The notes under the pieces are model-generated. The model was not told where the DNA came from. It did no database searches and was given only the letters and a program-made list of their open reading frames with translations. A DNA stretch of 64,000 nt from Deltaproteobacteria bacterium (lineage in GTDB: Bacteria; Desulfobacterota; Deferrisomatia; Deferrisomatales; BM512). Shown here piece after piece: positions 24,007 to 49,750 of the stretch. The position numbers were made by a program, and so were the translations under genes. How positions within the stretch are numbered: the stretch's first letter is position 1; the number at the start of each line of letters is the position of its first letter. The DNA lies in contig PKTT01000062.1 in NCBI GenBank assembly GCA_002869015.1, positions 26,257 to 90,256 of the forward strand, read 5' to 3'.

Positions 24007-24008
24007 AG

Positions 24009-34323: not shown

Positions 34324-35718
34324 CTATCTGAAATCAGACCTTTCAAAGCCGTATTTCTTCATCTTCCGCTCAATGGTGCGACGTGACATCTGCATGGATT
34401 TAGCTACTTCTTTAATCTTTCCGTTGTGGCGCTCAAGCATGCGCAGGAGATAGCGTTGTTCATACTTCTCAACCACCCGCTCCAGCCCAAATCCGAAGGG
34501 CTCATCGGGCTCATCCACCTGCGTAATGACATTCTCAAAGATATTTTCACCAAGGGCCTCTTTTAAATGTGCAGGGCGTATCGTCCTACCCCTGCCCGTC
34601 GCGATAACGCTTTCAATGATATTCTCAAGTTCCCTGACGTTTCCTGGAAAATCGTGAAGCTGGAGGATTCGGGCCGCCTTCGGGCCTATTTTGGTGAAAT
34701 TTTTCCCATACTTCTCTGAGTACCGCCGCATAAACAGGTGCGCCAAAAGAGGAATATCGCTCTTTCTCTCACGCAATGGCGGCAAAACCACATGAACGAC
34801 TTTCAATCTGTAATAAAGGTCATTTCTGAAATTGCCTTTATTGACCTCTTCAAGGAGGTTCATGTTGGTCGCGGCGACAAACCTGACGTCGATCTCTCTT
34901 TCGACGGTCTCGCCTACACGCGTAACGCGTCTTTCCTGTAAAACTCTGAGAAGTTTTACTTGAAGGTGCAGCTCAAGCTCACCAATCTCATCTAGAAAAA
35001 GAGTCCCCCCATTTGCCGCTTCAAAATACCCTACGTGTTCACGCTCCGCCCCGGTAAAGGCCCCTTTAACGTGGCCAAAAAGCTCACTCTCTATAAGGTT
35101 TGGGGGAATTGCACCTAGATTTACAGCGATGAAGGGGCCTTTACTTCTAGGAGACTCGTCATGAAGTGCGTGAGCTAGAAGCTCCTTGCCCGTACCGGAC
35201 TCCCCCTCAATAAGCACTATTGCCTGCGTCTGGGCGGCGCGTGAGACTCTCTTTAAGAGCTTTGTCATTGAGGGGCTTCGGCCAAAGATACGGTGGCTAG
35301 AGTTGCCTACACGTTCGCGAAGCGCCTTTACCTCATCTCTTAGCTCCTTCATCTCCAAAGCTTTTTTTACCGCGTGGATTATCTCTTCAGGGAGCAAGGG
35401 CTTTCTCAGATAGTCAAAGGCCCCTATCTTCATAAGCTCAATTGCCGACTCAACAGATGCATGGGCCGTTATAACAATGACCTCTGTATCTGTATGGTCC
35501 TCCTTGACCTTACGCACCACATGCTCTCCGCCTATAGCGCCCAGCACCAAGTCAGTTACCACCAGGCCGAAGCTCTCCTTTTCAAGCTTTGTCATAGCAG
35601 CTTCAGCGGAGTCCACTGCCGTTACCTCGTAGCCCTCCGCAGAGAGGAGACGCTCCATAAGCGCGGACATTCCCGAATCATCTTCAACTATCAGAATTTT
35701 ATTGATATTACTCAGCAT
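34324..35718 (-). CDS. Sigma-54-dependent response regulator (NtrC family: REC + AAA+ + Fis HTH)
   Basis: 464 aa. REC domain (ILIVEDDSG...VVTDLVLG), Walker [15 protein letters not shown] motif and a C-terminal HTH. Confidence 0.9.
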
Positions 35719-35736
35719 CTCACTTCCATCTCATTG

Positions 35737-36894
35737 CTAATCCCACCAAGCCTCGTGCTGGTAATTTACGGGAACGCCATCAAGGCGCACTCTTACCCCG
35801 GTATTGTCCACTGGCAACATGTGCAGCTGACTGCTCAGACCCTTTTCTTCAATCCACTCTTTTAGAGGTTCCGGTTTCGAGCATATTGCAAATGTACCGG
35901 GACCAATTGAACTCATCGAAACAATCTCAGCGCCCAATCCACGGAAGCCATCAAGAATACCCGCTATATCCACTCCATCGCTCTCATGAAAATTGCATTC
36001 GGCTAACTTTGAACCCATTTTGGAGAGCCGGTAAATGCTCTCGCCAACAGCTTTGTAGTCGCCTCTTTTCATCGCCGGGAGCAGGTCCATCAAAACTATA
36101 TATGCCTTCTCTTTTCTAGTCTCGAGGTCAAGCTCCCTTGCCTGTCCAAGGAGTTTTTCAGCCTCATTCTCACCAGAGAAAAAACTTTTTGCGGTTTTTG
36201 GCACTACCAACAGCACCTTCATATTGTTTGGCAGTGGGGACCTCATAACTATATTGCAATCATCGGAGGCAACGACCATCCCGCCGTGTATTCCAACCAT
36301 TGCGCCGACGTTAGTCTCAAAACCTGGCACCAGGAGATTGTCGCCGTATGTGGCCTCCTCGCAGTAGTTGTAGGCTATGGACTTTCTTAGGTCGCTTAAA
36401 GTTAAAGGCCTACCGAAAAGTTCGTTCAAAGCCACCATAGTAGCGGTTATCACGCTTATGGAGGAACCTAGGCCAATGTGTTTATAGCCATGGTCCTCAA
36501 TCACCACTTTCATACCGACGTACTCCCCCACCATCGTTTGGAACATCTCGACCAGATGGCACCCGATGGATGCCCTCGAACCTGTGGCTGAGACTCCGAG
36601 GGCTTGGGTGAAGGCAATCTTTGCGCGGCTGTAGGTACCGACAGCAAAGCCGATACCTCCGCCACCCGGTATCCCAACATCGAACCGGTTCATGTCTATT
36701 ACGGAGGCATGGAGGCGCGCTGGCACCTCCACTTCGCAAACTGTGCCGACTCCATATGGCACCGTCTTCCTGACTGCGCCGCCCCAATGAGATGGGAATA
36801 TGAATTTTGATGGATCACCCGGCTTGAAGTGGGATACCCCTTGCGATTTTCGAGAGCCAGCGTCAGTCATGTTCCGCCCTTTTAAAGCACCCAT
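35737..36894 (-). CDS. GHMP-kinase-superfamily protein resembling beta-ribofuranosylaminobenzene-5'-phosphate synthase (COG1907-like)
   Basis: 385 aa. GHMP motif HIGLGSSISVITA. The N-terminal RLHASVIDMNRFDVGIPGGGGIGFAV resembles the beta-RFAP synthase signature. Family call is from motif memory only, and the start is uncertain (M1 or M9). Confidence 0.5.
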   Translation of the reverse strand: MGALKGRNMTDAGSRKSQGVSHFKPGDPSKFIFPSHWGGAVRKTVPYGVGTVCEVEVPARLHASVIDMNRFDVGIPGGGGIGFAVGTYSRAKIAFTQALGVSATGSRASIGCHLVEMFQTMVGEYVGMKVVIEDHGYKHIGLGSSISVITATMVALNELFGRPLTLSDLRKSIAYNYCEEATYGDNLLVPGFETNVGAMVGIHGGMVVASDDCNIVMRSPLPNNMKVLLVVPKTAKSFFSGENEAEKLLGQARELDLETRKEKAYIVLMDLLPAMKRGDYKAVGESIYRLSKMGSKLAECNFHESDGVDIAGILDGFRGLGAEIVSMSSIGPGTFAICSKPEPLKEWIEEKGLSSQLHMLPVDNTGVRVRLDGVPVNYQHEAWWD

Positions 36895-36977
36895 CGATTC
36901 ACATAAACCGTTAATAAGCCTAGCATATTTCTCTGTATTGTTTTAGGATTAATCGAACCCCTCCCACGGAAACAACC

Positions 36978-38132
36978 ATGGAAAAAAACACTCAGGGGAG
37001 TGCCTCATGTTCACTCTCCGACATAATCAACAATGACATTTTCAATGCCATTTTAGAGGGAAGCGCAGAGGGAATTTGCATTACCGATTCCCAAGACAAT
37101 GTCATAGCGTTTAACAAAGCCGCCGAAATTTTAACAGGTAGAAACGCCGGCGAAGTTTTGGGGTCAAGCTGCGAAAACGCCTTTCAGTGCTCTTCAACCG
37201 CCGGATGCTGCCTAAAACCTGGCGCACGCTCAGGGTTGTGGCCGGAACTTTCATGTAATGCGCTGCGCGCCGATGGCAAAGCGGTAACCTTTAGGCGCAG
37301 GTCACGGGTGATTCGCGACTCTGTTGGAAGGTTTATCGGCAACATCTCCTATTTCGCCGACATGTCCCTCAAAGAAACCCTCCAGAAGAAGATGGTTGTA
37401 TATGAAAGGATGGCGAGCCTCGGAGAGCTCTCCGCATCCATGGTCCATGAAATTGGCAACCCGGTATCCGTGATTCTCGGCTTTAGCAGAATCCTCGTCC
37501 AACAAGAGGGTGAAGACCCCGGCGGCGATATCCGCTCCAGAATTTTCAAAGAGGCAGAGCGTTGCAGGGAGGTCGTTGACCATTTATTGGATTATGCCCG
37601 CTCTGCATCAAGAGAACCCCAGAGGACGCCACTAGTATTAAAGTCAGTGGTTGACGAAACCCTGGATTTGCTTAGCTACAGGATGAAGCGCCAAGCCGTA
37701 AGCTGGGAAGTTCTCTGGGATGTCGAAAACGCAATCGTTAGCGCCGACAGGGGTGAGCTAAAGCAAGTCTTCCTCAACGTCCTTTTGAATGCTCTTAACG
37801 CCATGGATGAGGGGGGGGTCATCAGCATAAAGGGTGAAACCAAACGCAACCTGATAACGGTGGGGGGAGACTCCTTATCAAACCCACGGCGCAAAACAAA
37901 AGTTATCGAGAGCATAGCCGTATTCATAGAAGACGAGGGAAGCGGGTTGGGTGGTCTTGACCCTGAACGTTTTTTTGCGCCCTTCTTTTCCACAAAGGAG
38001 ACCGGCGGTGGCCTTGGGCTGCCCACATGCCGCAAGCTCCTTGACAAATTCGGCGGCACCATCCGCCTTGAGGAGAGGGCCAGCGGTGGCGCAAGGGTTA
38101 TAATCGAAATACCCGCTTGTCTGGATGGATAG
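36978..38132 (+). CDS. Cytoplasmic PAS-domain sensor histidine kinase
   Basis: 384 aa. PAS domain (ICITDSQDNVIAFNKAAEILTGRNAGEVLG), H-box SASMVHEIGNP and HATPase_c G-boxes (DEGSGLG, GGGLGL). Confidence 0.85.
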   Translation: MEKNTQGSASCSLSDIINNDIFNAILEGSAEGICITDSQDNVIAFNKAAEILTGRNAGEVLGSSCENAFQCSSTAGCCLKPGARSGLWPELSCNALRADGKAVTFRRRSRVIRDSVGRFIGNISYFADMSLKETLQKKMVVYERMASLGELSASMVHEIGNPVSVILGFSRILVQQEGEDPGGDIRSRIFKEAERCREVVDHLLDYARSASREPQRTPLVLKSVVDETLDLLSYRMKRQAVSWEVLWDVENAIVSADRGELKQVFLNVLLNALNAMDEGGVISIKGETKRNLITVGGDSLSNPRRKTKVIESIAVFIEDEGSGLGGLDPERFFAPFFSTKETGGGLGLPTCRKLLDKFGGTIRLEERASGGARVIIEIPACLDG

Positions 38133-38140: not shown

Positions 38141-38686
38141 TCAGGCCCTGAAAAGGCTTTTGCGAAGGGACCTTTTTACATCATTTACTATCTCTGGGTT
38201 GATGATTGGGGAGTCTTCACACCAACCCTGCCATGGGCCTAGCAGCTGCTCATAAGGTATTCCGCAACCTCTTGAATAAACCGCCCCAACGCCTGGAAAG
38301 TTCTCTTCGTTGACTCTCTTGGCGAGTGCCATAAGCTCGTCGCGCCTAGCTTTTGACTCAGTGTGGAAGATTACCGCAAATGTTTTATGCCCCCCGGCGC
38401 CCTTGCCGAATTTTCCGTAGACCTCCTCCCCGGGGAAGGTCTTGCTAAATAGGGTCAGCCAATCATAGCAATCGTTATAACTCTCAAGCGCAACCGTAAC
38501 TTTCCAACATTCAAGGGCTTCTTTTAGATGTATTCTCTTCACATCACCCCTGAGCTGCTCCCAAAGCCCCGTCATACAGGGGAGGCACCTTTTATTTAGC
38601 CTATCTTTTGTGCGCCGCATCAGGGGGTCGCTTTCAAAGCTGGTCCACCCCTCAAGTGAAGCGCGCCTTCCTAAATGGATTTCCAC
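38141..38686 (-). CDS. Hypothetical protein (start uncertain)
   Basis: 181-aa ORF from GTG. Internal ATG alternatives exist (MRRTKDRL, MTGLWEQL). No recognised family. Confidence 0.4.
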   Translation of the reverse strand: MEIHLGRRASLEGWTSFESDPLMRRTKDRLNKRCLPCMTGLWEQLRGDVKRIHLKEALECWKVTVALESYNDCYDWLTLFSKTFPGEEVYGKFGKGAGGHKTFAVIFHTESKARRDELMALAKRVNEENFPGVGAVYSRGCGIPYEQLLGPWQGWCEDSPIINPEIVNDVKRSLRKSLFRA

Positions 38687-38901
38687 TTGATTGAGTTAAT
38701 CCTACTTAACGAAGTTGAACTGAACTTTGAGCGCGTTAAGGGTTCCCTTCATCCTTATCATATTTTTCTCAATCGCGGGGTTCCCTCTGCCTACCTCAGC
38801 TAACGCGTCTATTTTGGCTGACACTTCGGCAATTGCTTCCCTTATCTTCTCTGCCTGCTCCTGAACCTTCATTTTATCAGCTCCGCATTAGTTCAAATTT
38901 T

Positions 38902-40236
38902 TTATTTTTTCCTAAGGTCTTTGAACCTCTTTGACTTGACCTCATATCGCGGGAGGGACCCATAGGGAACGACCTCTATCCCTATATTCAGCTGAGTCTT
39001 CAGCCTTAAAGTGGAGGAGAGCTTCCGCAAGAGCTCGTCACGCCCCTTACCTGTAAGCTCATCTTTCAATTCAACCCTCAGATCGATTCTGTCAAGGTCC
39101 CCCTTCTTGTCTATGGTCAGTTCAAATTCGCCGTCAATTTCATTGAAAGAGCGCACTACCTCTTCCACCGTCACCGGGGAGAAAAGAACCCCCTTGACCT
39201 TTGTAATATGATCTACGCGCCCGTGAACTCCCTTTTCAAGGACTCTCCAGGTACGTCCGCATCCACACTTCTCCTCGGACCATGCGGATACGTCTTTCGT
39301 GTCGAACCGTATGCACGGCTGTGCCCTCCGGTCAAAAGCACTGATCACTATGCGGCCAGGCACGCCGCTTTCAGTAACTGGCTTGTCGGAATCAAGCTCA
39401 AGAAGCTCGACAAGGAACATGGACTCAATTACGTGTAGTCCTTCCGGCTTATGGCGGCATTCAAATGACCATGCGCCAACTTCGGTCGCGCCTACATGGT
39501 CATGAACCGGGCAATTCCAGGCCTCCTCCATCCGCTTCTTCGTGGAAGGCACCAAGGCTCCAGGCTCACCGGCACAGAGAATTTTCTTTATGCCCCAGTC
39601 ATGGGGGTCTCCCTCAAGCTCTTTTTTTACCGTCTCCGCCATGCCAAGGACATAAGTAGGGGTCGCCATAAAGGCAGTAGCCTTAAGCTCTTTCATTTTG
39701 AGCAAGCGCTCCCTTGTAGCCAGCACGCCGCCAGGGACTACCTCACACCCTATCTTCTCACAGGCATAATGGCCCGCCCAATAAGCGACGAAGATATTGT
39801 AGCCAAATGGTATGAAAACCCGGTCCTCCGGCCTGAAGCCTTGCGCCCAGAGCACCGTCGCCCAACACTCGCTCCACCATTCCCAATCAGCCCATGTATC
39901 CGGCTGATATACAGGAGTGCCGGTAGTTCCGCTGGTTTGGTGAAATACCGTAACCTCATCTAACGGAACGCATAGGGTGTCGCCATAGGGGAAGGGCTCC
40001 ACATTCTGGCAGCGGTAGTCATCTTTTGTAAGCAGCGGAACTTTTGAGATATCCTCCCAGCTCTTCAGGTCCTCCGGGTGAAATGATGCCTCTTCAAATT
40101 TTCTCCGATAGAGGGGGCTTTTCTCATAGCCCCATTTTACAAGCTCCTTCATCTTTTCGAGCTGCATTTGACGGATAGCCCCCATATCCATCACTTCTAC
40201 CAGTGGGTTCCAATACTCGTCCGTTGATATTTTCAC
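38902..40236 (-). CDS. PaaK-type (phenylacetate-CoA ligase / F390 synthetase family) aryl-CoA ligase
   Basis: 444 aa. The FHQTSGTTGTPV motif and overall layout are those of the PaaK family. Last enzyme gene of the ppc/ubiDX operon. Confidence 0.8.
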   Translation of the reverse strand: MKISTDEYWNPLVEVMDMGAIRQMQLEKMKELVKWGYEKSPLYRRKFEEASFHPEDLKSWEDISKVPLLTKDDYRCQNVEPFPYGDTLCVPLDEVTVFHQTSGTTGTPVYQPDTWADWEWWSECWATVLWAQGFRPEDRVFIPFGYNIFVAYWAGHYACEKIGCEVVPGGVLATRERLLKMKELKATAFMATPTYVLGMAETVKKELEGDPHDWGIKKILCAGEPGALVPSTKKRMEEAWNCPVHDHVGATEVGAWSFECRHKPEGLHVIESMFLVELLELDSDKPVTESGVPGRIVISAFDRRAQPCIRFDTKDVSAWSEEKCGCGRTWRVLEKGVHGRVDHITKVKGVLFSPVTVEEVVRSFNEIDGEFELTIDKKGDLDRIDLRVELKDELTGKGRDELLRKLSSTLRLKTQLNIGIEVVPYGSLPRYEVKSKRFKDLRKK

Positions 40237-40282
40237 TAGATACTCCTGTCATGAAAAATTCCACACGGTTTTGCCGGGGTCT

Positions 40283-40879
40283 TTACCGCGCCTCGGCAGC
40301 AACGGATATATCGCTTCCCACCCAGCGACGGAAAAGGTTGTGCTCGATCTTCAGCGCGTCCAAAGCTTTGCCGACACTCTGATCGATTATGTCTTGCACC
40401 GTCTTTGGACGGTGATACATAGAGATCATAGGGGGCATGAGAATCGCGCCGTTGTCTGCGCAGCGGTTTAGTATCTCAAGGTGTCCTTTGTGCAGCGGCG
40501 TCTCCCTGAACATTATGACCAGATTTCTTCGCTCTTTCAGGGTCACGTCAGCAGCGCGCACGAGGAGGTTCTCATTGTAACAGTGAGCTATAGCTGAAGC
40601 GGTCTTCACCGAGCAGGGTGCGATAACCATCCCCTCAGTTATAAATGAACCGCTGGCGATCGAAGCCCCGACGTCATTAAAATCGTATGTGACGTCTGCC
40701 AAATCCATTACATCATCGACCTTCCAATCGGTCTCAAGGACTATGTTGCGCTTACTGGAATCTGAGATGACGAGGTGGGTCTCTACATCTTCTACGTCTT
40801 TTAACACCTCAAGAATTCTAATCCCGTATTGGGGACCTGTTGCGCCTGAGATGCCTACTACTATTCGTTTCTTTTTCAT
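40283..40879 (-). CDS. ubiX: UbiX-family flavin prenyltransferase
   Basis: 198 aa. MKKKRIVVGISGATGPQYGIRILEVL... is typical of UbiX/Pad1. ATGA overlap with the upstream UbiD gene. Confidence 0.9.
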   Translation of the reverse strand: MKKKRIVVGISGATGPQYGIRILEVLKDVEDVETHLVISDSSKRNIVLETDWKVDDVMDLADVTYDFNDVGASIASGSFITEGMVIAPCSVKTASAIAHCYNENLLVRAADVTLKERRNLVIMFRETPLHKGHLEILNRCADNGAILMPPMISMYHRPKTVQDIIDQSVGKALDALKIEHNLFRRWVGSDISVAAEAR

Positions 40880-42240
40880 GACCGGCCTCCAGAAATGATT
40901 GCGGCAGCCAAGTCAGCTGCATCGGGCTGGATTTTCACCCTTAGATGTTCATGGTTGTGTCCGTAGCCGGTTGCATCAATGCCCAGCTTGGAAGATGTAA
41001 AATCTTCCCCGGTAGATGGGTCTATCGGCGAACCTTTAAGCCCGGATAGTATGATAGTGTCTTCATCGGGACGATATCGCGTTGCCATAGACCATTCAAC
41101 TTCACGCGTCCTTGTGGGGTCTATATCTGAAGCAACCGCGACAGCTTTTTTTACCACTCCGGTATTTAGGAGCCGCTCTAGGAGAGCTCGTATCTGACTA
41201 CTCTCAGCCTTCGACAAGCTAACGACAACCGAGGAGCCAAAAGTGCCTCGTATTAAATGGAGGGTTTCGAAGAATTCAAACTCTCCCTCTACCTGAGAGG
41301 CGATAAATGTCTGCGCCACCTCCCTCAGGAGCACATCTCCCTCCGGGCCATCTGGAAGAAGTGCGTGGTAGATAGGGTTTTTGCGGTGGGTTATACGTGT
41401 AACAAATAAGCTCGGCGTGGTGGTAAAAAGCTGGCTGTAGCCACCTATCTCGCCAAGCGGCCCATCCTGCCTTTCGGTAGCGGGGTCTACATATCCTTCG
41501 AGCAAAAATTCAGCCTCTGCGGGCACCAATATCCCAGTCTCTTTAGCTCTGCCGACCTCTACCGCTTCCCCCCTTAAGCCGCCGGCTACTGAAAGTTTGT
41601 CTGCTCCGGCGGCCCCCTTGAAGGCGAAGGAGGCGAATATGAGCGGGGTCATGCCTATGACGACCGCCACTGGCATCCGCTCCCCACGCTCCTTGTATTT
41701 TGCGTATATCGACGAAAGCGGCGGGTTCAGGAGGGCGGCGCCAAGCTCTCGATCCCCCCTGAGTTCCATCCTGTGTATACCGCGCGCGGTCTCTCCCGTG
41801 TCAGGGTCGATTGTCTGGAGCAGCCCGGTGGTCACGAAGGGACCAGAGTCACCCTCGTAGTAGGTGAAAATTGGCATAACCTCCGAGAGGCTGGCCTCCG
41901 GCTCCAGCACTTCCTCCACGGGCATATTCTCAACTTCTTTTGGTTTAACAGGGCTCTTTAGGCGCTCCCTTAAAGCCCTGGTATATTCGCCACCCGGTGA
42001 TACCCCCATCTCCAAGGCTAGAACATCTTCGGAATAGACAAGGTTGCCCACCGCTGATACTTCATGCCCTTTGAGCGAGGTAAAGAGGACTGCTCCCTTA
42101 TCGAGAGCAGCCGCCCTTGAGAGGCACGCCGCGCATTCGAAGCGGGGGGCGAGAGTTTGTTCAATCTCGACCAACCGCTCCGTTAGCCGAAGTGCCTTTA
42201 ATGCCTCATTCAGGTTGCGAAAGGCCACCCCTACCTCCAC
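40876..42240 (-). CDS. UbiD-family (prFMN-dependent) decarboxylase/carboxylase, short type
   Basis: 454 aa with a UbiD core (ARGIHRMELRG..., EAEFLLEGYVDPATERQDGPLGEIGGY). The GTG start overlaps the ppcD-like stop by 10 nt. Confidence 0.85.
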   Translation of the reverse strand: MEVGVAFRNLNEALKALRLTERLVEIEQTLAPRFECAACLSRAAALDKGAVLFTSLKGHEVSAVGNLVYSEDVLALEMGVSPGGEYTRALRERLKSPVKPKEVENMPVEEVLEPEASLSEVMPIFTYYEGDSGPFVTTGLLQTIDPDTGETARGIHRMELRGDRELGAALLNPPLSSIYAKYKERGERMPVAVVIGMTPLIFASFAFKGAAGADKLSVAGGLRGEAVEVGRAKETGILVPAEAEFLLEGYVDPATERQDGPLGEIGGYSQLFTTTPSLFVTRITHRKNPIYHALLPDGPEGDVLLREVAQTFIASQVEGEFEFFETLHLIRGTFGSSVVVSLSKAESSQIRALLERLLNTGVVKKAVAVASDIDPTRTREVEWSMATRYRPDEDTIILSGLKGSPIDPSTGEDFTSSKLGIDATGYGHNHEHLRVKIQPDAADLAAAIISGGRS

Positions 42241-42488
42241 TCTTCGGGTATGGGATTAATCCACTCAATTATCTCTATAGACCACGGCTTGCCAACCCAC
42301 TGCCCGCGACCTAAACGGGGCCAGAGGCGATCGCCATACTTGTCCGGGTCGGAGGATGCGCGGGCCTTAACAACCTTGCAGCAGTACTTGGCCTTGGTTG
42401 AAGCCAGATCGCGAATTATCATGTCCTGCGCCTGGTCCTGAGTGAATTCATTCAAATCGGTTAAGATAAAAGTGTCGTATTCAGCCAT
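42231..42488 (-). CDS. ppcD: Small (about 10 kDa) subunit, PpcD-like by size and position
   Basis: 85 aa with no recognisable domain. Occupies the position of the 10-kDa delta subunit of phenylphosphate carboxylase between UbiD-like genes. Confidence 0.55.
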   Translation of the reverse strand: MAEYDTFILTDLNEFTQDQAQDMIIRDLASTKAKYCCKVVKARASSDPDKYGDRLWPRLGRGQWVGKPWSIEIIEWINPIPEEWR

Positions 42489-42511
42489 CTTTGGCCTCCA
42501 TTTCCTTTTAA

Positions 42512-43960
42512 TTAGTCCTTAAAGCCGTAGTTGGTCCAGTTACTGAGGACCTTCTCCTTCACGTCCTCGGGATAGACCTTGTTGAAGGAGACCATGATCG
42601 GCTTGTCGGACTCCTTCCAATGGCGCGGGAAGAGGCAATCGAAGAGCACCTTCGAGCCCTTTGACTTTTTCCGCTCCTCCGGGGATGCGAATGGGTTGAG
42701 CGGTGTACCAAGGTGGTTTTCGTAAAGATGAATACCATCAATTGGGTGGCACCTTGTTGAAATGGCGTGAATGACCTCATCCTTGTTGTAGATATCGGTC
42801 TCCTCATCGACGACCACCGCCATGTGGAACCAGGGCCCCAGCTTTGAGCCGAAGATAAGGTTTGCGATCTGCTGCGCTATGCCTGTGTAAACATGCGCCG
42901 TTCCAATTACCACCAAATGATGAGTTGATTCGGGCCACATGTAGACGCCGGTAATCGGAATGCCCTGGCTCTTTAAGAGCTTCTCCATCTCAAGACCAAG
43001 GGAGAAGGACCTGAGGAGCTGCCCCTCATCTGTAGGTACACCCATATTAGAGAGCGGCATGATGGGCTTTTTGCGGTAAGTTATGCAGCGAACCCTGTAG
43101 ACCGTGCGGGGCTCTCTCGGGGAGGTGCGGTAACCTGTGTACTCACCAAAGGGAGCTTCCTCAAGCTCGATCCCTGGGAGGATATCGCCTTCGATGATAA
43201 TCTCTGCGTGGGCAGGCACATAGAGGTCGCTGGTCTCGCACTTGACCATCTCGACGCCCTCACCCATAAGCATTCCGCAGAACTCGTCTTCGGGGATTGA
43301 CGCAGGCGCGCAAGCCGCGATGCCCGCGAGCGGGTCCATTCCGATAACCGTCGCAAAGGGCATCGGCTCGTTCCTCGGCACATGCTTGTAGTGGAACATT
43401 TTGCCCATATCGGAGAATGGCAGCACGGGGCCGACCATCGTCTTCTCGTCAAAGACCATTTGGCGGTACATACCCCAATTTATGTCCTGGGTATCGGGGT
43501 CTTTACCGACTATCATATGCCAGGTGCTTAGATAGCGGCCGCCGTCACCGCCATGAACCATGGGGGCGGGCAGGTCGAAGAGATTGACGTCATCGCCGGT
43601 GATTACTACCTCTTTACAGGGAGCATCTGCGCGGTCAACGATGACGGGAGGATAGGATTTGCCGCTCTCTGTACGCTCAAGGTAAGCAGCGCATATTTCC
43701 GGAATAGGCGTATCGGGGGGAAGCCCGAGTGAAATGGCAAGCTTACGATAGGTTGCCAGTGGCGCGCCAAAAGCCTCGAAGCCTTCGTAATCCTTGATAT
43801 TCTTAAAGTAGGGCGAGGGGCCCTTTATCTCGCATACGCGGCGCACGATGGCGCCCATCTCCATGTCCCAGTCGACCTCCTGCTCCACGGTGACCAGGTC
43901 ACCAGCTTCGTCAAGTGCTTTAATGAACTCTCGGTTGTCTTTGTAATATTTGTAAGGCAT
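42512..43960 (-). CDS. ppcA: UbiD-family large subunit of phenylphosphate-carboxylase-type enzyme (alpha/beta assignment tentative)
   Basis: 482 aa with a UbiD fold (GGRYLSTWHMIVGKDPDT..., AEIIIEGDILPGIELEEAPFGEYTGY). Synteny matches ppcBCAD. Confidence 0.75.
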   Translation of the reverse strand: MPYKYYKDNREFIKALDEAGDLVTVEQEVDWDMEMGAIVRRVCEIKGPSPYFKNIKDYEGFEAFGAPLATYRKLAISLGLPPDTPIPEICAAYLERTESGKSYPPVIVDRADAPCKEVVITGDDVNLFDLPAPMVHGGDGGRYLSTWHMIVGKDPDTQDINWGMYRQMVFDEKTMVGPVLPFSDMGKMFHYKHVPRNEPMPFATVIGMDPLAGIAACAPASIPEDEFCGMLMGEGVEMVKCETSDLYVPAHAEIIIEGDILPGIELEEAPFGEYTGYRTSPREPRTVYRVRCITYRKKPIMPLSNMGVPTDEGQLLRSFSLGLEMEKLLKSQGIPITGVYMWPESTHHLVVIGTAHVYTGIAQQIANLIFGSKLGPWFHMAVVVDEETDIYNKDEVIHAISTRCHPIDGIHLYENHLGTPLNPFASPEERKKSKGSKVLFDCLFPRHWKESDKPIMVSFNKVYPEDVKEKVLSNWTNYGFKD

Positions 43961-43978
43961 TCGTCGCTCCTTTTTCCT

Positions 43979-44521
43979 CTAGCCCCAGCCCTTGTTTCCG
44001 ACCTTGTCTACCAGCGGTTTCCATTTGCCCTGCGCGCGCAAGATAAACTCGCCAAGCTCTCGCAGGACGCCCTCTCCACCCTTACGGGTAGTCACGTAAT
44101 GGGATATCTCTTTGACCTCGGGGACTGCGTTGGCGGGAGCAACCGCAAAACCGACAAGCCGCATCACTCCCATATCGATAATTTCGTCGCCAACAAAGCA
44201 GACCTCTTCGGCGGTTATTCCCATCTCTTCCATAATCTCTTTACACTTCGCGGCTTTGTCCTTGGCCTGGTAAAAGCGCTTTACGCCTATCTCCTCACAA
44301 CGAACCGCGACTGTCTTGGATTTACGGGTGATCATCGAGACCTCTATACCCATCATCATGAGCATGTTGGCTCCGAAACCGTCGTCGTGGCTGAAGGTCT
44401 GGAACTTTACGCCTTCGTCGTTGTAGAGGATGTGTCCGCTTGTCAAGACGCCGTGCACATCCAGGATGACAATTTTTATTTTTGATGCCTTTTCAATCGC
44501 TTCATTCTGGTCGTAAACCAT
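43979..44521 (-). CDS. ppcC: KdsC-like HAD phosphatase subunit (PpcC-like, gamma)
   Basis: 180 aa with close KdsC-type layout (IKIVILDVHGVLTSG..., VCFVGDEIIDMGVMRLVGFAVAPANA, GGEGVLRELGEFILRAQGK). Motif I reads DVH rather than DVD. Confidence 0.75.
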   Translation of the reverse strand: MVYDQNEAIEKASKIKIVILDVHGVLTSGHILYNDEGVKFQTFSHDDGFGANMLMMMGIEVSMITRKSKTVAVRCEEIGVKRFYQAKDKAAKCKEIMEEMGITAEEVCFVGDEIIDMGVMRLVGFAVAPANAVPEVKEISHYVTTRKGGEGVLRELGEFILRAQGKWKPLVDKVGNKGWG

Positions 44522-44544
44522 CTTTATCTCCTCTTGCCGGCGGC

Positions 44545-45957
44545 TTAATCCAGGCCAAGCTCTTCCCAGCGGCTTTTTATGTTCTCAAGAACCTCTTGGC
44601 TCATCTCAACCTTGACCGGCTTGTCCTCCCACTCGAAGGGGATCGTTGCGTCCATGATGATTCTAGAGGTGATGAATTTGTTCTCTTTATCGTGCAGGGC
44701 TGGGTCAAGAGGTGTAGAACGGCCCCTGTTGATTATCTGGGTGGAGCGCTCTGGGTCATAACGCGTTGCCAACGCCCACCAGACGCGCGGCAGGTCATCG
44801 GCGGCGATGTCATCATCGACGATGATGAGACCTTTGAGACCATAAGTGCAGGTATTTGAGGCTATAACCGCAGCGGCAACTTGGTTGGAGTGGCCCGGAT
44901 ACATCTGCTTAAGTGAAACAATCGCCCAGAAGCGTCCGCAAGCTTCGGGGGGCATGTAAACTGACTGTATGCCCTTGATCCCCATGCGAGTGAGTTCCGT
45001 CCACAGAGTTGCGTTGCGAACGAATGCAAGCATCATGTGGTTGTCGTTGACGGGGCGGCCGACCGAGGCGGCGAGCAGGATAGGGTCATTTCGGTGGTAA
45101 ATGCGCTTAACCTCAATGGCTGGCTTATCTACCTGCTTATAAATCTCCTCGGTGTAGTAACCGGTGTATTCGCCGAAGGGACCTTCGCTGCGGAGGTTGT
45201 CGCCGTCAATGTATCCCTCGAGGACGAATTCCGCGGTGGCGGGTATCGGCAATCCGGTAAGAGGGGCTGTGACTACTTCGACCGGCTCGCCGCGCAAAGT
45301 ACCGACGACATCGTACTCATCGGCGTTCTCAACCATTGCGCTGCCTGCGAGCATAAGGAGAGGATCACACCCGACTACCAGGCAGATGGGCATCTTCTCG
45401 CCTTTTTTCCGATACTTCTGAAGGATGCGGTCTCCGCGCTTGCCCTTCAGTATCTGGGCGCCAACGGTCTTTGCGTCGAGGACCTGGCTTCTGTAGGTGC
45501 CCAGGTTGATCTCACCGGTTTCAGGATCCTTGACCACCATGAAGCAAGCAGTACCGATATACCTTCCGCCATCCTTCTCATAGAACTTGGGGGCGGGGAG
45601 CTTATAGATATCAATATCCTGCTCTTCAATCACATTCTCAAAAATGGGGCCGGTCTCGACCTGTTTTTTGGGGATAATCTCGCCAATGGAAAGCTTCATC
45701 CATTCGTAGCTTATCTCAGTCATGGTCATGTCGGCGGGTTTACCGAGACACATGGCAAGGCGCTTAGTGTTTGAATACGCGCCAAACATCACGCTGCCGA
45801 TACAGCCCTTTACATTCTCAAAGAGCATGGATGGGCCATCTCGCTCCTCAACCAACTTGGCTATGTGGGACATCTCGAGGTCCCAATCGACCTCTGCCGT
45901 CACCCTCTTCAAGTCACCTTTCGATTCACACAAACCGATAAAATCCCTAAGGTCCAT
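44545..45957 (-). CDS. ppcB: UbiD-family large subunit of phenylphosphate-carboxylase-type enzyme (alpha/beta assignment tentative)
   Basis: 470 aa with a UbiD fold (GGRYIGTACFMVVKDPETGEINLGTYR, AEFVLEGYIDGDNLRSEGPFGEYTGYY). First gene of the operon. Confidence 0.75.
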   Translation of the reverse strand: MDLRDFIGLCESKGDLKRVTAEVDWDLEMSHIAKLVEERDGPSMLFENVKGCIGSVMFGAYSNTKRLAMCLGKPADMTMTEISYEWMKLSIGEIIPKKQVETGPIFENVIEEQDIDIYKLPAPKFYEKDGGRYIGTACFMVVKDPETGEINLGTYRSQVLDAKTVGAQILKGKRGDRILQKYRKKGEKMPICLVVGCDPLLMLAGSAMVENADEYDVVGTLRGEPVEVVTAPLTGLPIPATAEFVLEGYIDGDNLRSEGPFGEYTGYYTEEIYKQVDKPAIEVKRIYHRNDPILLAASVGRPVNDNHMMLAFVRNATLWTELTRMGIKGIQSVYMPPEACGRFWAIVSLKQMYPGHSNQVAAAVIASNTCTYGLKGLIIVDDDIAADDLPRVWWALATRYDPERSTQIINRGRSTPLDPALHDKENKFITSRIIMDATIPFEWEDKPVKVEMSQEVLENIKSRWEELGLD

Positions 45958-45997
45958 TGATTCCTCCTAACACCACTTCGGGTTTATGAAATAACGT

Positions 45998-46033
45998 TAT
46001 AGAAACTATAAATAAGGATTCATATATAGACAA
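45998..46033 (-). promoter_or_regulatory. Candidate sigma-70 promoter of the ppc operon (TTGTCT-17 nt-TATAGT) overlapping a LysR-type T-N11-A box
   Basis: On the minus strand the -35 TTGTCT is at 46033-46028 and the -10 TATAGT at 46010-46005. Palindromes TATAGAAACTATA (45998-46010) and ATAACGTTAT (45991-46000) lie in the ppc/lysR divergent region. Confidence 0.4.
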
Positions 46034-46092
46034 TTCAGAAGATTTAATGCTATATATAAGTATATCTTTGGTTTTGAAACACTGTTTGGAGA

Positions 46093-46992
46093 TTGCTTAT
46101 GATAAACCTCAACCAACTGCGAGTCTTCCACGAAGCAGCCAAGTGCCAGAACTTCTCTGAGGCTGCCAGGAATCTATGCGTAACCCAGCCCGCCGTCACA
46201 GGCCAGATACGCTCTTTGGAAGAATCTTTGGAGATAAGGTTATTCAAAAAACGCGGGAGAAAGATGCTCCTCTCCGAAGCAGGAGCGGTTCTCTTTAGCC
46301 TTGCAACAAAAGTTTTCGACCTTGAGCAGGAGATGGAGCAGGTTATCGCAGAGATGCACGAGTTAAAACGAGGCATCCTAAAGGTTGGAACCACAAAGAC
46401 CTACGCCCGCTACCTTATGCCCTCTTTGATCTCAAAGTTCAGAAAAAAACACCCGGATATTAAAGTTATCCTGGATGAAGGCAGCTCGATGGAGATAACG
46501 TCCAGTCTCTTGGACCTTCGTAATGAGCTGGCGGTGGTAGCGGCGCACGAGGAGATTCCCGGCATATCGACCATACCCTTTCGAGAGGAGCCGGTAAGGT
46601 TGGTTGTAGCCAATGAGCACCCTTTCGCAAAGAAGGGTACTATCGAGTTTAGCGAGCTGGCTGGGCAATTCATAATTCTAAAAGAGCAGCAATCGAGTAC
46701 GCACCAAATTGTTCAGGAAGCTTTTACCGAGCATGGCTTGACCCCTAACGTGCTGGTTGAGACCAGTAACGTCGAGTTTATCAAGGAGACAGTTGAACGC
46801 GGAGAGGGGGTTGCCTTTCTGGTCTGGTCATCCATAGAGAAAGAGATCAACGCGCAGAAGCTGAAGGCCATAGAGATAAAGGGGTGTCACCTTTCGCTCC
46901 AGGTCGTAATATGCTTTCTGGAGGAGGGCGGACTCTCACCGGCGGCCAAGGCCTTCCTCAATATTTTGAAGGAGGCTTGCGAGACCGCTTAG
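46093..46992 (+). CDS. LysR family transcriptional regulator
   Basis: 299 aa. N-terminal HTH (LNQLRVFHEAAKCQNFSEAARNLCVTQPAVTGQIRSLEESL). Divergent from the ppc operon. Confidence 0.9.
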   Translation: MLMINLNQLRVFHEAAKCQNFSEAARNLCVTQPAVTGQIRSLEESLEIRLFKKRGRKMLLSEAGAVLFSLATKVFDLEQEMEQVIAEMHELKRGILKVGTTKTYARYLMPSLISKFRKKHPDIKVILDEGSSMEITSSLLDLRNELAVVAAHEEIPGISTIPFREEPVRLVVANEHPFAKKGTIEFSELAGQFIILKEQQSSTHQIVQEAFTEHGLTPNVLVETSNVEFIKETVERGEGVAFLVWSSIEKEINAQKLKAIEIKGCHLSLQVVICFLEEGGLSPAAKAFLNILKEACETA

Positions 46993-48041
46993 GGCGAAAT
47001 AAACATCCCTTCAAGGTCCAGCAGGCTTTCAAGGTAGAGGTCTGGCTTCTCGCCTTTGAGCGGCCTGTGCTCCTTCTCTCCACCTTTTATTATCGCGCAC
47101 TTAACTGATGAAGCGCGGGCGGCCTTCAAGTCGCTCATCGAATCCCCAACCATAATGGCCTTATCCGGAGATAGTGACATCAGCTCCAAAGCCTTTTGGA
47201 TACCCTCCCCATCCGGCTTCATCAGAGCTACATCGTTTCTAGTTATAATTACATCAAAGAGGCCCCGCCACTGGAAGCGGTCCAAAATTTTATCACCGAC
47301 CTCTCTGCCTATATTACTCACCATAGCGATAGGGAATTTATTTTCCTTGAGCTTCCTCAACAGCTCTTCTGCTCCGCTGCTTTCGCTCCATCTATCCAGA
47401 GCGTCATGGTCATATTTGTCATAGATGGGGCCTAAAGCAGCATCAATCCTTGATATTGCTTCACGGTCGAAACCCTCTTTAACGTAGGCGGCTTTACGGA
47501 TACCTGCGTAATCCACGTCTTTTAAGATTGCTTCATCGAAACCAAGCCCAAGGAGCGCACCTTTAAGCTCAGCCTCGGCCTCAAGAAGGTTCCATTGAAA
47601 ATCGACCAGCGTCCCTTCGAGGTCAAATATTACACCTTCAAGGTGACGATCACCCCCCCTCATCTCTAGTGAAACGGAGATCTCATCGCCATTTGAGAGC
47701 GATAGAAGATCGCGGAGGCGGTAGGGTGAGACAAGTTCAATTTTATCTGCGGGGTAATCATCGACCTCAGGTAAAACTATAACCGCCGGAACCAATCCAT
47801 TGACCCTGACCGGATAGCAGATTGCACTGCAAAAACCCGGCGCTGGTTTTACGGTGCTTGAAGAAGATACTTTGTCCCAATGATCTTTTATTGAGAGGCG
47901 ATCTTTCGAGAGAGTGAGGTTGAGAGTTCCCGGATAGGGCTCCCTTCCCAGCGCGGAAGTAAGCTGCGGCTTGACCCAGTCAAGTTCAGTAAAAAAATTC
48001 GCTTCGTTTAGCCCCTCCGACACTCTCGCCCTGAATTCCAT
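46989..48041 (-). CDS. Fusion protein: archaeal-type CTP-dependent riboflavin kinase domain (DUF120) + HAD hydrolase domain
   Basis: ORF 46989..48104. Start moved to ATG 48041 (GGGAG RBS). The N-terminal ...LGREPYPGTLNLTL... and ...KIELVSPYRLRDLLSLSNGDEISV match MJ0056-type RibK as recalled. The C-terminal HAD has motifs VIFDLEGTLVDF and MVGDSMSDLKAA. Confidence 0.7.
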   Translation of the reverse strand: MEFRARVSEGLNEANFFTELDWVKPQLTSALGREPYPGTLNLTLSKDRLSIKDHWDKVSSSSTVKPAPGFCSAICYPVRVNGLVPAVIVLPEVDDYPADKIELVSPYRLRDLLSLSNGDEISVSLEMRGGDRHLEGVIFDLEGTLVDFQWNLLEAEAELKGALLGLGFDEAILKDVDYAGIRKAAYVKEGFDREAISRIDAALGPIYDKYDHDALDRWSESSGAEELLRKLKENKFPIAMVSNIGREVGDKILDRFQWRGLFDVIITRNDVALMKPDGEGIQKALELMSLSPDKAIMVGDSMSDLKAARASSVKCAIIKGGEKEHRPLKGEKPDLYLESLLDLEGMFISP

Positions 48042-48066
48042 ATCTTTTTTCTCCCGAGAAAAACAA

Positions 48067-48090
48067 TCGGGCCCTCCAAAGAGGGCCCGA
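48067..48090 (-). terminator. Rho-independent terminator after the pps operon (hairpin usable on both strands)
   Basis: TCGGGCCCTC-CAAA-GAGGGCCCGA. On the minus strand it is followed by TTGTTTTTCT and then directly by the RBS of the ribK-HAD gene. Confidence 0.6.
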
Positions 48091-48122
48091 CTTTTTACGT
48101 GCAAACTAACGCATCAAAAACA

Positions 48123-48623
48123 TTACTCTTTCATCTCCGAGAAGACGGCATTCTCCATAGCCGCCATCTCCTCTTTCTCTCCTTCGAGCCACTCATAGGT
48201 AAAGGGCTTGGCGGTAACTCCAGGAAAGGATTGGTCCCTTGCACCCAAAAGCTCCATCTCGTAGACCATCATTTCACTTGGCTTTACAGCCTCAAGGCTA
48301 TCCTTGACTTTCTTGGCCTTGCCTTTTACCAGATAAGCAAGGTTACCATTGCCGATTATATGAACCCCTGCGAGGCCCGAGGCATTGATGTTGACAGCCG
48401 CGGTGCCTTTGGAGTCAACGGCAAACCTCAGACGCTTAGAGTCCATAGCAACTGCCCATGTATATGCTGAACTTGGGTAACCATCTGCGCCAGCAGTCAG
48501 AAGCAAGGCGGGTGCTCCAGGCTGAAGAAAACTGACTAAATTTTCGGGCATCTCTTTTAACACACCGCTCATTTCCTTACTCCTTCTATGCTTATCTATG
48601 CATTCATCGCTTAACCATCTCAT
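48123..48623 (-). CDS. Pyridoxamine-5'-phosphate-oxidase-like (FMN-binding split-barrel) protein in the ppsC position
   Basis: 166 aa. ATGA overlap with ppsB (alternative start MSGVLK at 48572). ...PALLLTAGADGYPSSAYTWAVAMDSKRLRFAVDSKGTAAVNINASGLAGVHIIG... looks like the PNPOx-like family. No CBS-domain pattern. Confidence 0.5.
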   Translation of the reverse strand: MRWLSDECIDKHRRSKEMSGVLKEMPENLVSFLQPGAPALLLTAGADGYPSSAYTWAVAMDSKRLRFAVDSKGTAAVNINASGLAGVHIIGNGNLAYLVKGKAKKVKDSLEAVKPSEMMVYEMELLGARDQSFPGVTAKPFTYEWLEGEKEEMAAMENAVFSEMKE

Positions 48624-49750
48624 TTAAAGCGTACCCCTGTGATGAGCTGGCCTACGATCCTGTCCATAGCATCCTTCTTCTTCTCCGTCTTGGCCTGGGC
48701 CTCTTTCTTGGACCAGACTGATTCAGGCCTGACCTGAAGGATAATTATGTTGGATGGGAAGGAGAGATCCCTGTCAATGCCAAACTCAATATCATAGGGC
48801 TTGCCATAATAACGATCGATGGTTTTAGAGACCTTGCACAGCTCAACGAGTTCGTCACGCTGGAGGCAGAAACGGTTGCGGTCTTCTTCGCAAACCGCCA
48901 CCTCTTTGATATCGCTACCGCCCTCGTTGTAGACGCACTGGATCTCCTTTGCCCCTTTAGTTGAGCTGATGACATCCAAGGTAACCTTGTCCAGGAGGTA
49001 GTTGTCCGGGGTCACAAGCCCGCTGACCACTGCCTCACCGAGCCCGTAGCTGACATCCACCGAGATCTTTGAGCGGTCGCCATTTAAGGGATTAAGGGTG
49101 AAGATGACACCGGATACCCTTGAATTAACCATTTTGGGCACGCCAACTCCGATGTTCAGGAGGAAGCCCATGTCTTTGTTCATCCGGTAGGTGATCGCCT
49201 CAACGTGGTATGCGCTGGCCCAGGTCTTTTTAACGTAATCGACCAGGTCTTTTTCGCCCATAATGTTGAGGTACGTTTCCATCTGACCCGGCATTGACAC
49301 TGCACCTGAAGAACGAACCGCCACCCTTAAATTCGGGACACCGGCCAAATCGCAGAGCTTTCCATACTGTGAACATATCTCGTCCACCAACACCTGCGGG
49401 ACGGTAGCGTCATTTATAAGGTCTAGGGTAAAGTCACTTGCAGCTTGACATTTTTCCACTGAAACCTCACCCAGGGAGTTTATATATTTCCCCAGCTCAT
49501 CAAGAATTCCAGTTTCACGGATAAAAATGTCATTCGCCTTAAGCGTGAGAGCGAAACCGGGGCTAATCGGAATACCAGCCTTTCGCATTTCGCCCAGATT
49601 GGCGTTTTTCTTACCAACCAGCGGGAAGTCGGAACCTTCAAGCTCCTCATACCAGAATGACAGGCTATTTTCTTTCTCAGACATGGCCATTCCCTGACTA
49701 TTTTGAAATTCATCTTCCATCATAAAAAATTTAACTTGAGCCGCTTCCAT
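48620..49750 (-). CDS. ppsB: Phenylphosphate synthase beta-like subunit (PEP synthase N-terminal ATP-binding part)
   Basis: 376 aa. DFPLVGKKNANLGEMRKAGIPISPGFALT is typical of the PEP/pyruvate-binding (PPDK_N) domain. Adjacent to ppsA. Confidence 0.8.
   Translation of the reverse strand: MEAAQVKFFMMEDEFQNSQGMAMSEKENSLSFWYEELEGSDFPLVGKKNANLGEMRKAGIPISPGFALTLKANDIFIRETGILDELGKYINSLGEVSVEKCQAASDFTLDLINDATVPQVLVDEICSQYGKLCDLAGVPNLRVAVRSSGAVSMPGQMETYLNIMGEKDLVDYVKKTWASAYHVEAITYRMNKDMGFLLNIGVGVPKMVNSRVSGVIFTLNPLNGDRSKISVDVSYGLGEAVVSGLVTPDNYLLDKVTLDVISSTKGAKEIQCVYNEGGSDIKEVAVCEEDRNRFCLQRDELVELCKVSKTIDRYYGKPYDIEFGIDRDLSFPSNIIILQVRPESVWSKKEAQAKTEKKKDAMDRIVGQLITGVRFK

Follow-up and report, generated by a model that had tools for sequence, protein, structure and literature searches.

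Among the closest known relatives of the genes considered here are the phenol clusters of Thauera, Aromatoleum and Azoarcus, which run ppsABC-ppcBDAC-ORF7(UbiD)-ORF8(UbiX)-...-ORF14. According to the summary of Schuhle & Fuchs 2004 in PMC6114531, the phenylphosphate carboxylase of Thauera is Mn2+/K+-dependent and O2-sensitive and exchanges 14CO2 with 4-hydroxybenzoate. As earlier work is summarised there, four subunits are enough for its activity in vitro, and the same source describes ORF8 as UbiX-like and ORF14 as similar to phenylacetate-coenzyme A (CoA) ligases. The UbiD- and UbiX-like genes downstream of such Pps-Ppc operons have been named PpcX and PpcY (PMC5946492). A related operon was analysed in a stretch of 64,000 nucleotides (the window) from contig PKTT01000062.1 of a Deltaproteobacteria bacterium. 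Its seven minus-strand open reading frames (ORFs) at 38902-45957 had been characterised, in a preliminary description made from the sequence, as a phenylphosphate carboxylase operon extended by a third UbiD, a UbiX and a PaaK-like CoA ligase.

All seven ORFs are present at the coordinates given there, and their domain content agrees as well: Pfam and NCBIfam identify three UbiD-family proteins, a KdsC-like HAD protein, a Phenyl_P_gamma protein, a UbiX and a PaaK-like ligase. The core of that description, a four-subunit carboxylase and, after it, the UbiD/UbiX-like ORFs known from phenol clusters, is upheld. The operon is not ‘extended’, however, because the literature and the compared loci (Azoarcus KH32C and dozens of metagenome loci) likewise have a UbiD, a UbiX and a PaaK-like ligase, and it therefore follows the standard design. 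The cluster is of an already described kind, and its novelty was overstated. The operon itself matters little, being another example of the phenylphosphate route in an uncultured deltaproteobacterium, with a class II benzoyl-CoA reductase on the same contig. A side result carries more weight: every phenol cluster examined has a UbiD paralog in which all three metal ligands are replaced, and it lies beside genes for flavin supply. By its residue pattern, the third UbiD belongs to this group, called K-type here after an invariant lysine. What is new is the K-type pattern, the presence of both its subtypes in one genome, a fourth UbiD that is closer to the UbiD of denitrifiers, and a set of genes for the supply of prenylated flavin mononucleotide (prFMN) with a PhdC-like candidate.

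Carboxylase operon and its likely substrate

The subunits were assessed by NCBIfam equivalog cut-offs, Pfam, pairwise identity and a neighbour-joining tree with bootstraps. The annotated phenol cluster on plasmid pAZKH of Azoarcus sp. KH32C (NC_020548.1), found by tblastn of plasmid records, was used as the denitrifier reference. PpcA scores 704.3 bits on TIGR02723 (cut-off 564.6) and is 60.5% identical to the annotated Azoarcus PpcA, while PpcB scores 637.2 bits on TIGR02724 (cut-off 468.95) with 57.5% identity to its counterpart. In the tree, the two large subunits group with the annotated PpcA and PpcB of Azoarcus and with the orthologues of other anaerobes, with a bootstrap of 100% on the PpcB clade and of 74% on the exact PpcA set; the clustering away from PpcA/PpcB that the preliminary description had named as a refutation was thus not observed. 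Gamma is above the cut-off of Pfam PF09662, Phenyl_P_gamma (46.6 bits, cut-off 25), and shares 32.5% identity (E 1e-13) with the Azoarcus gamma subunit. The delta subunit passes the KdsC subfamily model and is 46% identical to Azoarcus PpcD (E 2e-52), and the slot of ppcD between ppcB and ppcA is conserved across loci. The carboxylase genes are ordered beta-delta-alpha-gamma with gaps of 18-23 nt, and ppsB and ppsA lie nearby.

The tight spacing reported earlier is confirmed by intergenic gaps of 23, 18, 23 and 46 nt, as is the ATGA overlap, in which the third UbiD and ubiX share 4 nt. A 10-nt overlap at the start of the third UbiD turned out to be an artefact of taking the first possible start codon. 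The mechanical ORF runs to 42240 and yields 454 aa; the likelier start is the GTG at 42228, which yields 450 aa. GGAGG is located 5 nt upstream of this codon, and the ppcC stop is 2 nt before it. JGI gene call P0001 (450 aa) opens with the same codon, and the N-termini of homologues agree with it. Good ribosome-binding sites also precede ppcB (GGAGG upstream of ATG) and the ligase (AGGAG).

Residues were mapped through alignments with the sequences of HmfF, VdcC and AnFdc1 taken from PDB searches. In AnFdc1, N168, H191 and E233 are the Mn ligands, and R173, E277 and E282 are catalytic (PMC4947166); this numbering is followed below. PpcA has N168, R173, D191, E233, E277, E282 and K391 in 35 of 35 orthologues. 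PpcB has N168, R173, K or R at 191, E233, E277 and E282. Among the UbiD paralogs of the window, only PpcA possesses a near-canonical Mn/prFMN site; since it alone keeps N, D and E together with K391, it is likely to be the Mn/prFMN-binding catalytic subunit. The metal site of PpcB is remodelled too, with K or R at the H191 position, and its E233 position varies, being E in the window, D in Azoarcus and G or A in the Syntrophorhabdus type. A PDB search returned no solved structure of any phenylphosphate carboxylase subunit.

UbiX passes both NF004685 (252.8 bits, cut-off 188) and TIGR00421 (231.8 bits, cut-off 108.9), and it is 60% identical to the UbiX of the Azoarcus cluster. The ligase carries AMP-binding and AMP-binding_C_2 domains and reaches 236.9 bits on the PaaK equivalog TIGR02155, below the cut-off of 646.3. 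By model, it is thus a member of the PaaK-like superfamily only and not a PaaK phenylacetate-CoA ligase. Its closest solved chains are 6hdw and 4r1l, the best structures being 2-hydroxyisobutyryl-CoA synthetase and PaaK. The Azoarcus phenol-cluster ligase shares 35.6% identity with it (E 1e-99), and the ligases at the same position in metagenome loci L115 and L121 share 62-64%. In Desulfatiglans anilini, a PaaK-like protein homologous to ORF14 (02049) is induced by phenol and has been proposed as a 4-hydroxybenzoyl-CoA ligase (PMC6114531).

The Azoarcus KH32C cluster is ordered ppsA, ppsB, ppsC, ppcB, ppcD, ppcA, ppcG, UbiD, UbiX, DUF120, NUDIX, AMP-binding, transporter, with a PNPOx-family gene and a sigma-54 regulator upstream. 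The window has the same subunits as the denitrifier clusters and the same beta-delta-alpha-gamma-UbiD-UbiX order. It also shares with Azoarcus the PaaK-like ligase, the DUF120 riboflavin kinase, a PNPOx-fold protein, a MetA-like channel and ppsAB, at 32-60% identity. Unlike Azoarcus, it lacks PpsC (CBS) and NUDIX, its riboflavin kinase forms a fusion with a HAD phosphatase, its pps genes form a separate upstream operon, and its regulator is of the LysR type instead of the sigma-54 type found next to pps. Furthermore, the UbiD after ppcC is of another subtype (36% identity), the denitrifier subtype being present as a fourth UbiD. In Syntrophorhabdus aromaticivorans UI and related syntrophs (PMC5946492), the same subtype as the third UbiD of the window, with 40-44% identity, is located between ppcC and UbiX, and a divergent LysR is present. 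However, two tandem PpcD paralogs occur in 26 of 32 Syntrophorhabdus-type operons, in contrast to the single one in the window and in the Deferrisomatales and Azoarcus types, and most of the Syntrophorhabdus-type operons have no adjacent ligase.

The arrangement is widespread. A genome scan seeded with third-UbiD homologues gave 49 loci (L001-L049), and a metagenome scan that started from the fourth UbiD and its Azoarcus relative gave 80 loci. More than 100 public loci share the B-D-A-C-UbiD-UbiX order, which is far beyond chance. In the genome loci, ppcC lies immediately upstream of the third-type UbiD in all 41 with enough sequence, the gene just after this UbiD is UbiX in 43 of 46, and 31 of 32 have the full B-D-A-C set. 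Over the K-type UbiDs, the place directly before UbiX is taken in 43 of 46 and in 46 of 56 loci. A divergent LysR occupies the ppcB-side position in 29 of 48 genome loci, and a ligase lies within 10 kb in only 8 of 48. These loci include that of S. aromaticivorans UI (L036), a cultured syntrophic phenol degrader, and the closest syntenic relatives are metagenome-assembled genomes of Deferrisomatales, with PpcB 82-88% identical. Most of the 80 metagenome loci are arranged as ppsA-ppsB-ppsC-ppcB-D-A-C-UbiD-UbiX-riboflavin kinase-NUDIX-PNPOx-PaaK-like ligase. Several (L115, L118, L121 and L123) have B-D-A-C-UbiD-UbiX, with the ligase next in L115 and L121 and, in L121, the same riboflavin kinase-HAD fusion as in the window after it; this is the layout of the window.

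On the Thauera model and the homologies described here, phenol would enter via the MetA-family channel and be phosphorylated to phenylphosphate by PpsAB. PpcD would then remove the phosphate, and the PpcA/PpcB/PpcC core would add CO2 in the para position to form 4-hydroxybenzoate, which the PaaK-like ligase would convert to 4-hydroxybenzoyl-CoA. Dehydroxylation, for which the window holds no genes, would come next, and a BamB-I reductase encoded at 3675-19049 would dearomatise benzoyl-CoA. UbiX would make the prenylated flavin, and the riboflavin kinase-HAD fusion and a PhdC-like flavoprotein would probably supply and mature the cofactor.

The region is very probably the carboxylation half of the canonical anaerobic phenol pathway in an uncultured, Deferrisomatales-like deltaproteobacterium. 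A few results weigh against this. The gamma subunit scores 44 bits on TIGR02725, below the cut-off of 135.6, and the best NCBIfam match of the delta subunit, TIGR02726, stays at 162.4 bits, below 281.95; delta is counted as a member on the strength of its synteny and not of its model score. In addition, neither a PpsC (CBS) gene nor the genes of 4-hydroxybenzoyl-CoA reductase occur in the 64-kb window. The preliminary description held that the substrate, be it phenol, aniline or another arene, could not be fixed from sequence. This is true for the exact compound, as substituted phenols are possible, but the delta subunit and ppsAB narrow the choice to the phenol type. Because ppsAB lies upstream and a class II benzoyl-CoA reductase is encoded in the window, phenol is the likely substrate. 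A phenol-type substrate is strongly favoured since PpsA is 58% identical to the phenol-cluster protein, delta and gamma are present, and the ligase is of the PaaK type, not the BzlA type.

Readings with aniline or benzene as the substrate were weighed and rejected. That the operon acts on aniline via phenylphosphoamidate, as in D. anilini, is very improbable. The aniline system of that organism does combine Pps-like kinases with PpcB-like UbiD proteins (PMC7500099), and a substrate range is not readable with certainty from sequence; nevertheless, its carboxylase has two beta-type subunits without gamma or delta (PMC7500099), whereas the window has the full alpha-beta-gamma-delta set. Between the aniline kinase alpha and the Pps alpha of D. 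anilini, moreover, identity is just 26.7% (PMC7500099), as against the 58% that links PpsA of the window to the phenol-cluster PpsA. It is scarcely credible that ppcC, the third UbiD, UbiX and the ligase are a benzene or arene carboxylase module (abcD-abcA-bzlA-ubiX type) joined to a phenol operon. The preliminary description had pointed to this likeness, and the positions are indeed similar, with a small gamma-like gene, a UbiD, a UbiX and a CoA ligase; AbcD even stands under the gene label ppcC in a transcript table (PMC5852087), and a K-type UbiD is also found in a naphthalene-carboxylase-like cluster (L128). Yet the same block is standard in phenol clusters, and the third UbiD falls in the HmfF-like/K-type part of the tree and not with PpcA-like proteins. 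Reported identities point to a place of AbcA near PpcA, as naphthalene carboxylase subunits are up to 48% identical to AbcA and up to 46% to PpcA (PMC12016498). The benzene carboxylase cluster is marked by a BzlA-type ligase and by the lack of both the delta phosphatase and a phenylphosphate synthase; the window is the opposite on all of these, and its PaaK-type ligase reaches only 23.7 bits on TIGR02262, the benzoate-CoA ligase family, where the cut-off is 375. The likeness is, therefore, not needed, and the delta subunit and ppsAB indicate the phenylphosphate route.

UbiD paralogs with a remodelled metal site

The third UbiD is above the cut-offs of PF20695, PF01977 and PF20696 (UbiD_N, UbiD and UbiD_C), and it passes only the generic UbiD model, TIGR00148. 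Its best solved relative is the 2,5-furandicarboxylate decarboxylase HmfF (6h6x/6h6v), with E 4e-52 and about 30% identity to 6h6x. Both share the three-domain UbiD architecture, the catalytic R and the E-x4-E; however, HmfF retains the N, H and E ligands, whereas the third UbiD has A, P and K, and no furan catabolic genes lie nearby. The JGI labels ‘furandicarboxylate decarboxylase’ are transferred names. An identification of the third UbiD as HmfF was rejected in view of the identity of about 30%, the altered cofactor site and the lack of hmf genes.

At the positions of N168, H191 and E233, the third UbiD carries A152, P173-P174 (positions 190-191) and K215, so all three Mn ligands are replaced. 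The catalytic residues are kept and invariant, as R157, D259 and E264 (AnFdc1 R173, E277 and E282). The pattern of G/A/S, P and K was found in 32 of 32 syntenic orthologues and in 116 of 116 close homologues. The fourth UbiD of the window has A, R, PP (190-191), K, E and E at the corresponding places and also lacks the Mn ligands, and K occupies the E233 position in 75 of its 75 metagenome homologues. When 1.84 billion representative proteins were searched exhaustively, G/A/S-R-PP-K-D/E-E was present in about 45 of roughly the first 60 that are full-length; further down, canonical N-R-xH-E-E-E sequences (HmfF-like) dominate.

By these residues, the third UbiD is assigned to the K-type group, in which G/A, P and an invariant K stand in place of the Mn ligands and the catalytic R-D/E-E remains. 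Since the substitutions are concerted and conserved, they point to a remodelled site rather than a decaying one. Strict monophyly of the K-type sequences is unsupported, with a neighbour-joining bootstrap of 0.0, or 0.37 without one outlier, which weighs against treating them as a clade. Because the tree bootstraps are weak, the grouping rests on the shared residue pattern.

Two K-type subtypes can be told apart by identity and clustering, and they fill the same slot in different lineages; the window carries both. The UbiD after ppcG in Azoarcus KH32C is 56.5% identical to the fourth UbiD of the window and 36% to the third. The fourth UbiD and the Azoarcus UbiD group with 100% bootstrap, and the third UbiD groups with the Syntrophorhabdus-type proteins with 95.5%. 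The preliminary description had matched the third UbiD by gene order to the UbiD-like ORF of the Thauera phenol cluster. Its slot after ppcC agrees with this, but by sequence the fourth UbiD is the closer one to the UbiD of the denitrifier cluster. Both subtypes are also found together in loci L043 and L044.

A metagenome multi-UbiD cluster (L128; Ga0153915_10002229, 1-14710) resembles naphthalene or benzene carboxylase clusters, the likeness being to published naphthalene carboxylase clusters (PMC12016498). It has genes for two ParA-like proteins, a K-type UbiD, a BzlA-type ligase, a UbiX, a riboflavin kinase and an HdrD-like protein. Of its other UbiDs, one has a canonical site and two are degenerate (R173A; E282G). 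K-type UbiDs are, therefore, not limited to phenol clusters.

Proposed cofactor supply and possible role of the third UbiD

By homology, the cluster carries a prFMN supply set, consisting of UbiX, the riboflavin kinase-HAD fusion and a candidate PhdC-like maturase. The kinase domain of the fusion shares 35% identity with the product of the DUF120 gene located after UbiX in Azoarcus, and its HAD part might replace the Azoarcus NUDIX protein in making dimethylallyl phosphate. The riboflavin kinase is of the archaeal type; in Azoarcus, separate DUF120 and NUDIX genes come after UbiX. In clusters of the denitrifier type, genes for UbiX, DUF120 riboflavin kinase, NUDIX and a PNPOx-fold protein form a block that opens with the K-type UbiD.

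The PNPOx-fold flavoprotein, to which P0276 (also 149 aa) is 100% identical, shares 45-56% identity with the conserved gene that separates NUDIX from the ligase in phenol clusters of the denitrifier type. The AlphaFold2 (AF2) model of the window protein has a pLDDT of 90.5, and PhdC takes ranks 2-7, 9 and 10 in Foldseek, with TM 0.66-0.69 over the full length; the sole match above it is an uncharacterised Exiguobacterium protein. A sequence search against the PDB gave no match, so the link to PhdC comes from the fold search. The protein is considered a candidate anaerobic prFMN maturase. PhdC is an established oxidative maturase of prFMN, though its physiological oxidant in strict anaerobes is unknown (PMC13040415), and LpdD is a prFMNH2 chaperone (PMC10865409). 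Both provide a precedent for dedicated cofactor-handling proteins in UbiD systems, but neither has the UbiD fold, and no precedent for a UbiD paralog as a cofactor helper was found in the literature.

The role of the third UbiD was rightly left unexplained in the preliminary description. No function has been demonstrated for ORF7/PpcX in the literature reached, although the ORF has been known for about 25 years, and a literature search for ppcX/ppcY gave nothing beyond PMC5946492. We tentatively favour an accessory, cofactor-linked protein that would hold prFMN via the Lys without Mn2+ and serve as a carrier, an activator or a loosely bound module, with no independent decarboxylase activity. 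A K-type UbiD is not a required catalytic subunit of the assembled enzyme because four subunits suffice in Thauera. In biochemical terms, the third UbiD is not regarded as a subunit of phenylphosphate carboxylase. The accessory role is favoured since K-type UbiDs are confined to multi-subunit carboxylase operons, since they stand beside UbiX and other flavin-supply genes, and since the phosphate/metal site of the third UbiD is remodelled. Weighing against it, the invariant catalytic triad is equally compatible with a real (de)carboxylase, and with a PhdC-like maturase candidate in the cluster, a further cofactor helper is less needed.

It is conceivable, though doubtful, that the third UbiD and UbiX constitute an independent prFMN-dependent 4-hydroxybenzoate decarboxylase or phenol carboxylase, acting as an ATP-free bypass or on a side substrate. 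Such a role has been speculated for PpcX/PpcY in Syntrophorhabdus (PMC5946492); the catalytic R-D/E-E is invariant in every member examined, and the nearest solved relatives, HmfF and VdcC, are true decarboxylases. However, none of the three Mn ligands required for canonical prFMN binding is left, a small partner of the VdcD kind was not identified next to the third UbiD, and in the loci seen a K-type UbiD never occurs away from a multi-subunit carboxylase operon. As textbook background, direct carboxylation of phenol is also thermodynamically poor. A catalytically dead scaffold, that is, a fifth and loosely bound subunit lost in the Thauera purification, appears improbable. The loss of the metal site, the tight coupling to ppcC across a 2-nt gap and the degenerate paralogs of other multi-UbiD clusters (R173A or E282G in L128) would suit it, but the substituted positions and the catalytic triad are strongly conserved and not drifting, which speaks for a working site.

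If the accessory reading is carried further, K-type UbiDs could form a distinct functional class that binds prFMN without Mn2+, with Lys in place of Glu, as cofactor carriers or activators for anoxic multi-subunit aromatic carboxylases; this is offered as a speculative possibility. The loading and oxidation of prFMN in strict anaerobes are an acknowledged open question (PMC13040415). If the class is real, it would help to explain how prFMN is loaded and matured without O2 in these organisms. The K-type UbiD, the riboflavin kinase and the PhdC-like protein make up a defined list of helper genes for co-expression, which is directly testable. The heterologous production of active phenylphosphate, benzene and naphthalene carboxylases has been difficult.

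Gene inventory and the surrounding window

The features of the phenol region are collected in the table.

Table. Positions of the phenol-related genes and signals in the window
Feature	Position	Strand	Description
orf181	38141-38686	-	conserved, no family match; downstream of ligase, operon membership uncertain
PaaK-like aryl-CoA ligase	38902-40236	-	444 aa, candidate 4-hydroxybenzoate-CoA ligase
ubiX (‘PpcY’)	40283-40879	-	198 aa, predicted flavin prenyltransferase
third UbiD (‘PpcX’, syntroph/Deferrisomatales subtype)	40876-42228	-	450 aa from GTG 42228
ppcC	42231-42488	-	85 aa, gamma subunit
ppcA	42512-43960	-	482 aa, UbiD family, alpha subunit
ppcD	43979-44521	-	180 aa, KdsC-like HAD phosphatase, delta subunit
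ppcB	44545-45957	-	470 aa, UbiD family, phenylphosphate carboxylase beta subunit
divergent promoter region ppcB/LysR	45958-46092		promoter-like sites on both strands
LysR regulator	46093-46992	+	HTH_1 and LysR_substrate; divergent from ppcB, synteny conserved
riboflavin kinase-HAD fusion	46989-48041	-	DUF120, CTP-dependent; PF01982 and HAD_2; mechanical ORF to 48104
PNPOx-fold flavoprotein	48123-48572	-	149 aa, PF01243; candidate PhdC-like prFMN maturase
ppsB	48620-49750	-	phenylphosphate synthase
ppsA	49754-51610	-	phenylphosphate synthase; NF006152 887 bits (cut-off 723); ppsA/B with PPDK_N and PEP-utilizers domains
Phenol_MetA_deg channel	52723-54078	-	outer-membrane channel, PF13557 195.6 bits
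fourth UbiD (denitrifier-subtype PpcX)	54148-55449	-	433 aa; pps operon, between HD protein and MetA channel

The divergent LysR regulator probably controls the carboxylase operon. A scan for promoters and terminators performed no better than on shuffled controls, except for one strong hairpin at 48065-48092. This hairpin, 12-bp, GC-rich and with a T-run, is located inside the mechanical ORF of the riboflavin kinase-HAD fusion and upstream of the likely start of that gene, the ATG at 48041.

In the upstream operon, PpsA and PpsB are 58% and 39% identical to their Azoarcus counterparts, and the MetA-family channel has 37% identity with the ‘transporter’ that closes the Azoarcus cluster. A YaaH-family channel and an HD protein are encoded there as well, and a further LysR gene, the second, points away from this operon in divergent orientation. 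A 226-aa ORF at 51676-52356 (minus strand) has no family match, and its homologues, with 42-46% identity, are found directly upstream of ppsA in many Syntrophorhabdales loci. Since the window is without the CBS-domain PpsC, this ORF could be its functional substitute.

At the other end of the carboxylase operon, orf181 (181 aa) has no Pfam or NCBIfam match. Its homologues adjoin UbiX in several related loci of the Deferrisomatales type, and its AF2 model, with a pLDDT of 90, nonetheless matched no solved fold with E < 0.01. An unannotated 56-aa ORF at 38702-38872 (minus strand), between the ligase and orf181, has GGAG upstream, looks helical and may be a gene. Further on, a four-gene block at 33688-38132 is conserved beside the ppc operon in the closest relatives. 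It encodes an HD protein, a sigma-54 response regulator, a GHMP-fold protein and a divergent PAS histidine kinase, and it may be a sensing module. The GHMP-fold protein is weakly similar to beta-ribofuranosylaminobenzene 5'-phosphate synthase, which binds 4-amino- or 4-hydroxybenzoate.

The benzoyl-CoA reductase cluster named above (minus strand) is a complete BamB-I-like class II set of the ATP-independent, tungsten type. It comprises an AFOR-family BamB, an HdrD-like protein, a 1021-aa BamE-like protein, FlpD, a Nuo51-like protein and molybdopterin subunits, along with an AMP-binding ligase at 5753-7381 and an IclR regulator. The plus-strand stretch 21207-32631 encodes an RND efflux system of the heavy-metal type, with two OEP proteins, a CusB-like protein with HMBD and a 1169-aa AcrB-family pump, and after it a RACo corrinoid-activation protein and a DUF1638 protein; these genes appear unrelated to those for phenol. 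Finally, an ORF of at least 1741 aa at 58750-63975 (minus strand) consists of about ten Big_9/cadherin-like repeats and is located in a stretch whose GC content is 60-62%, against about 50% in the rest of the window.

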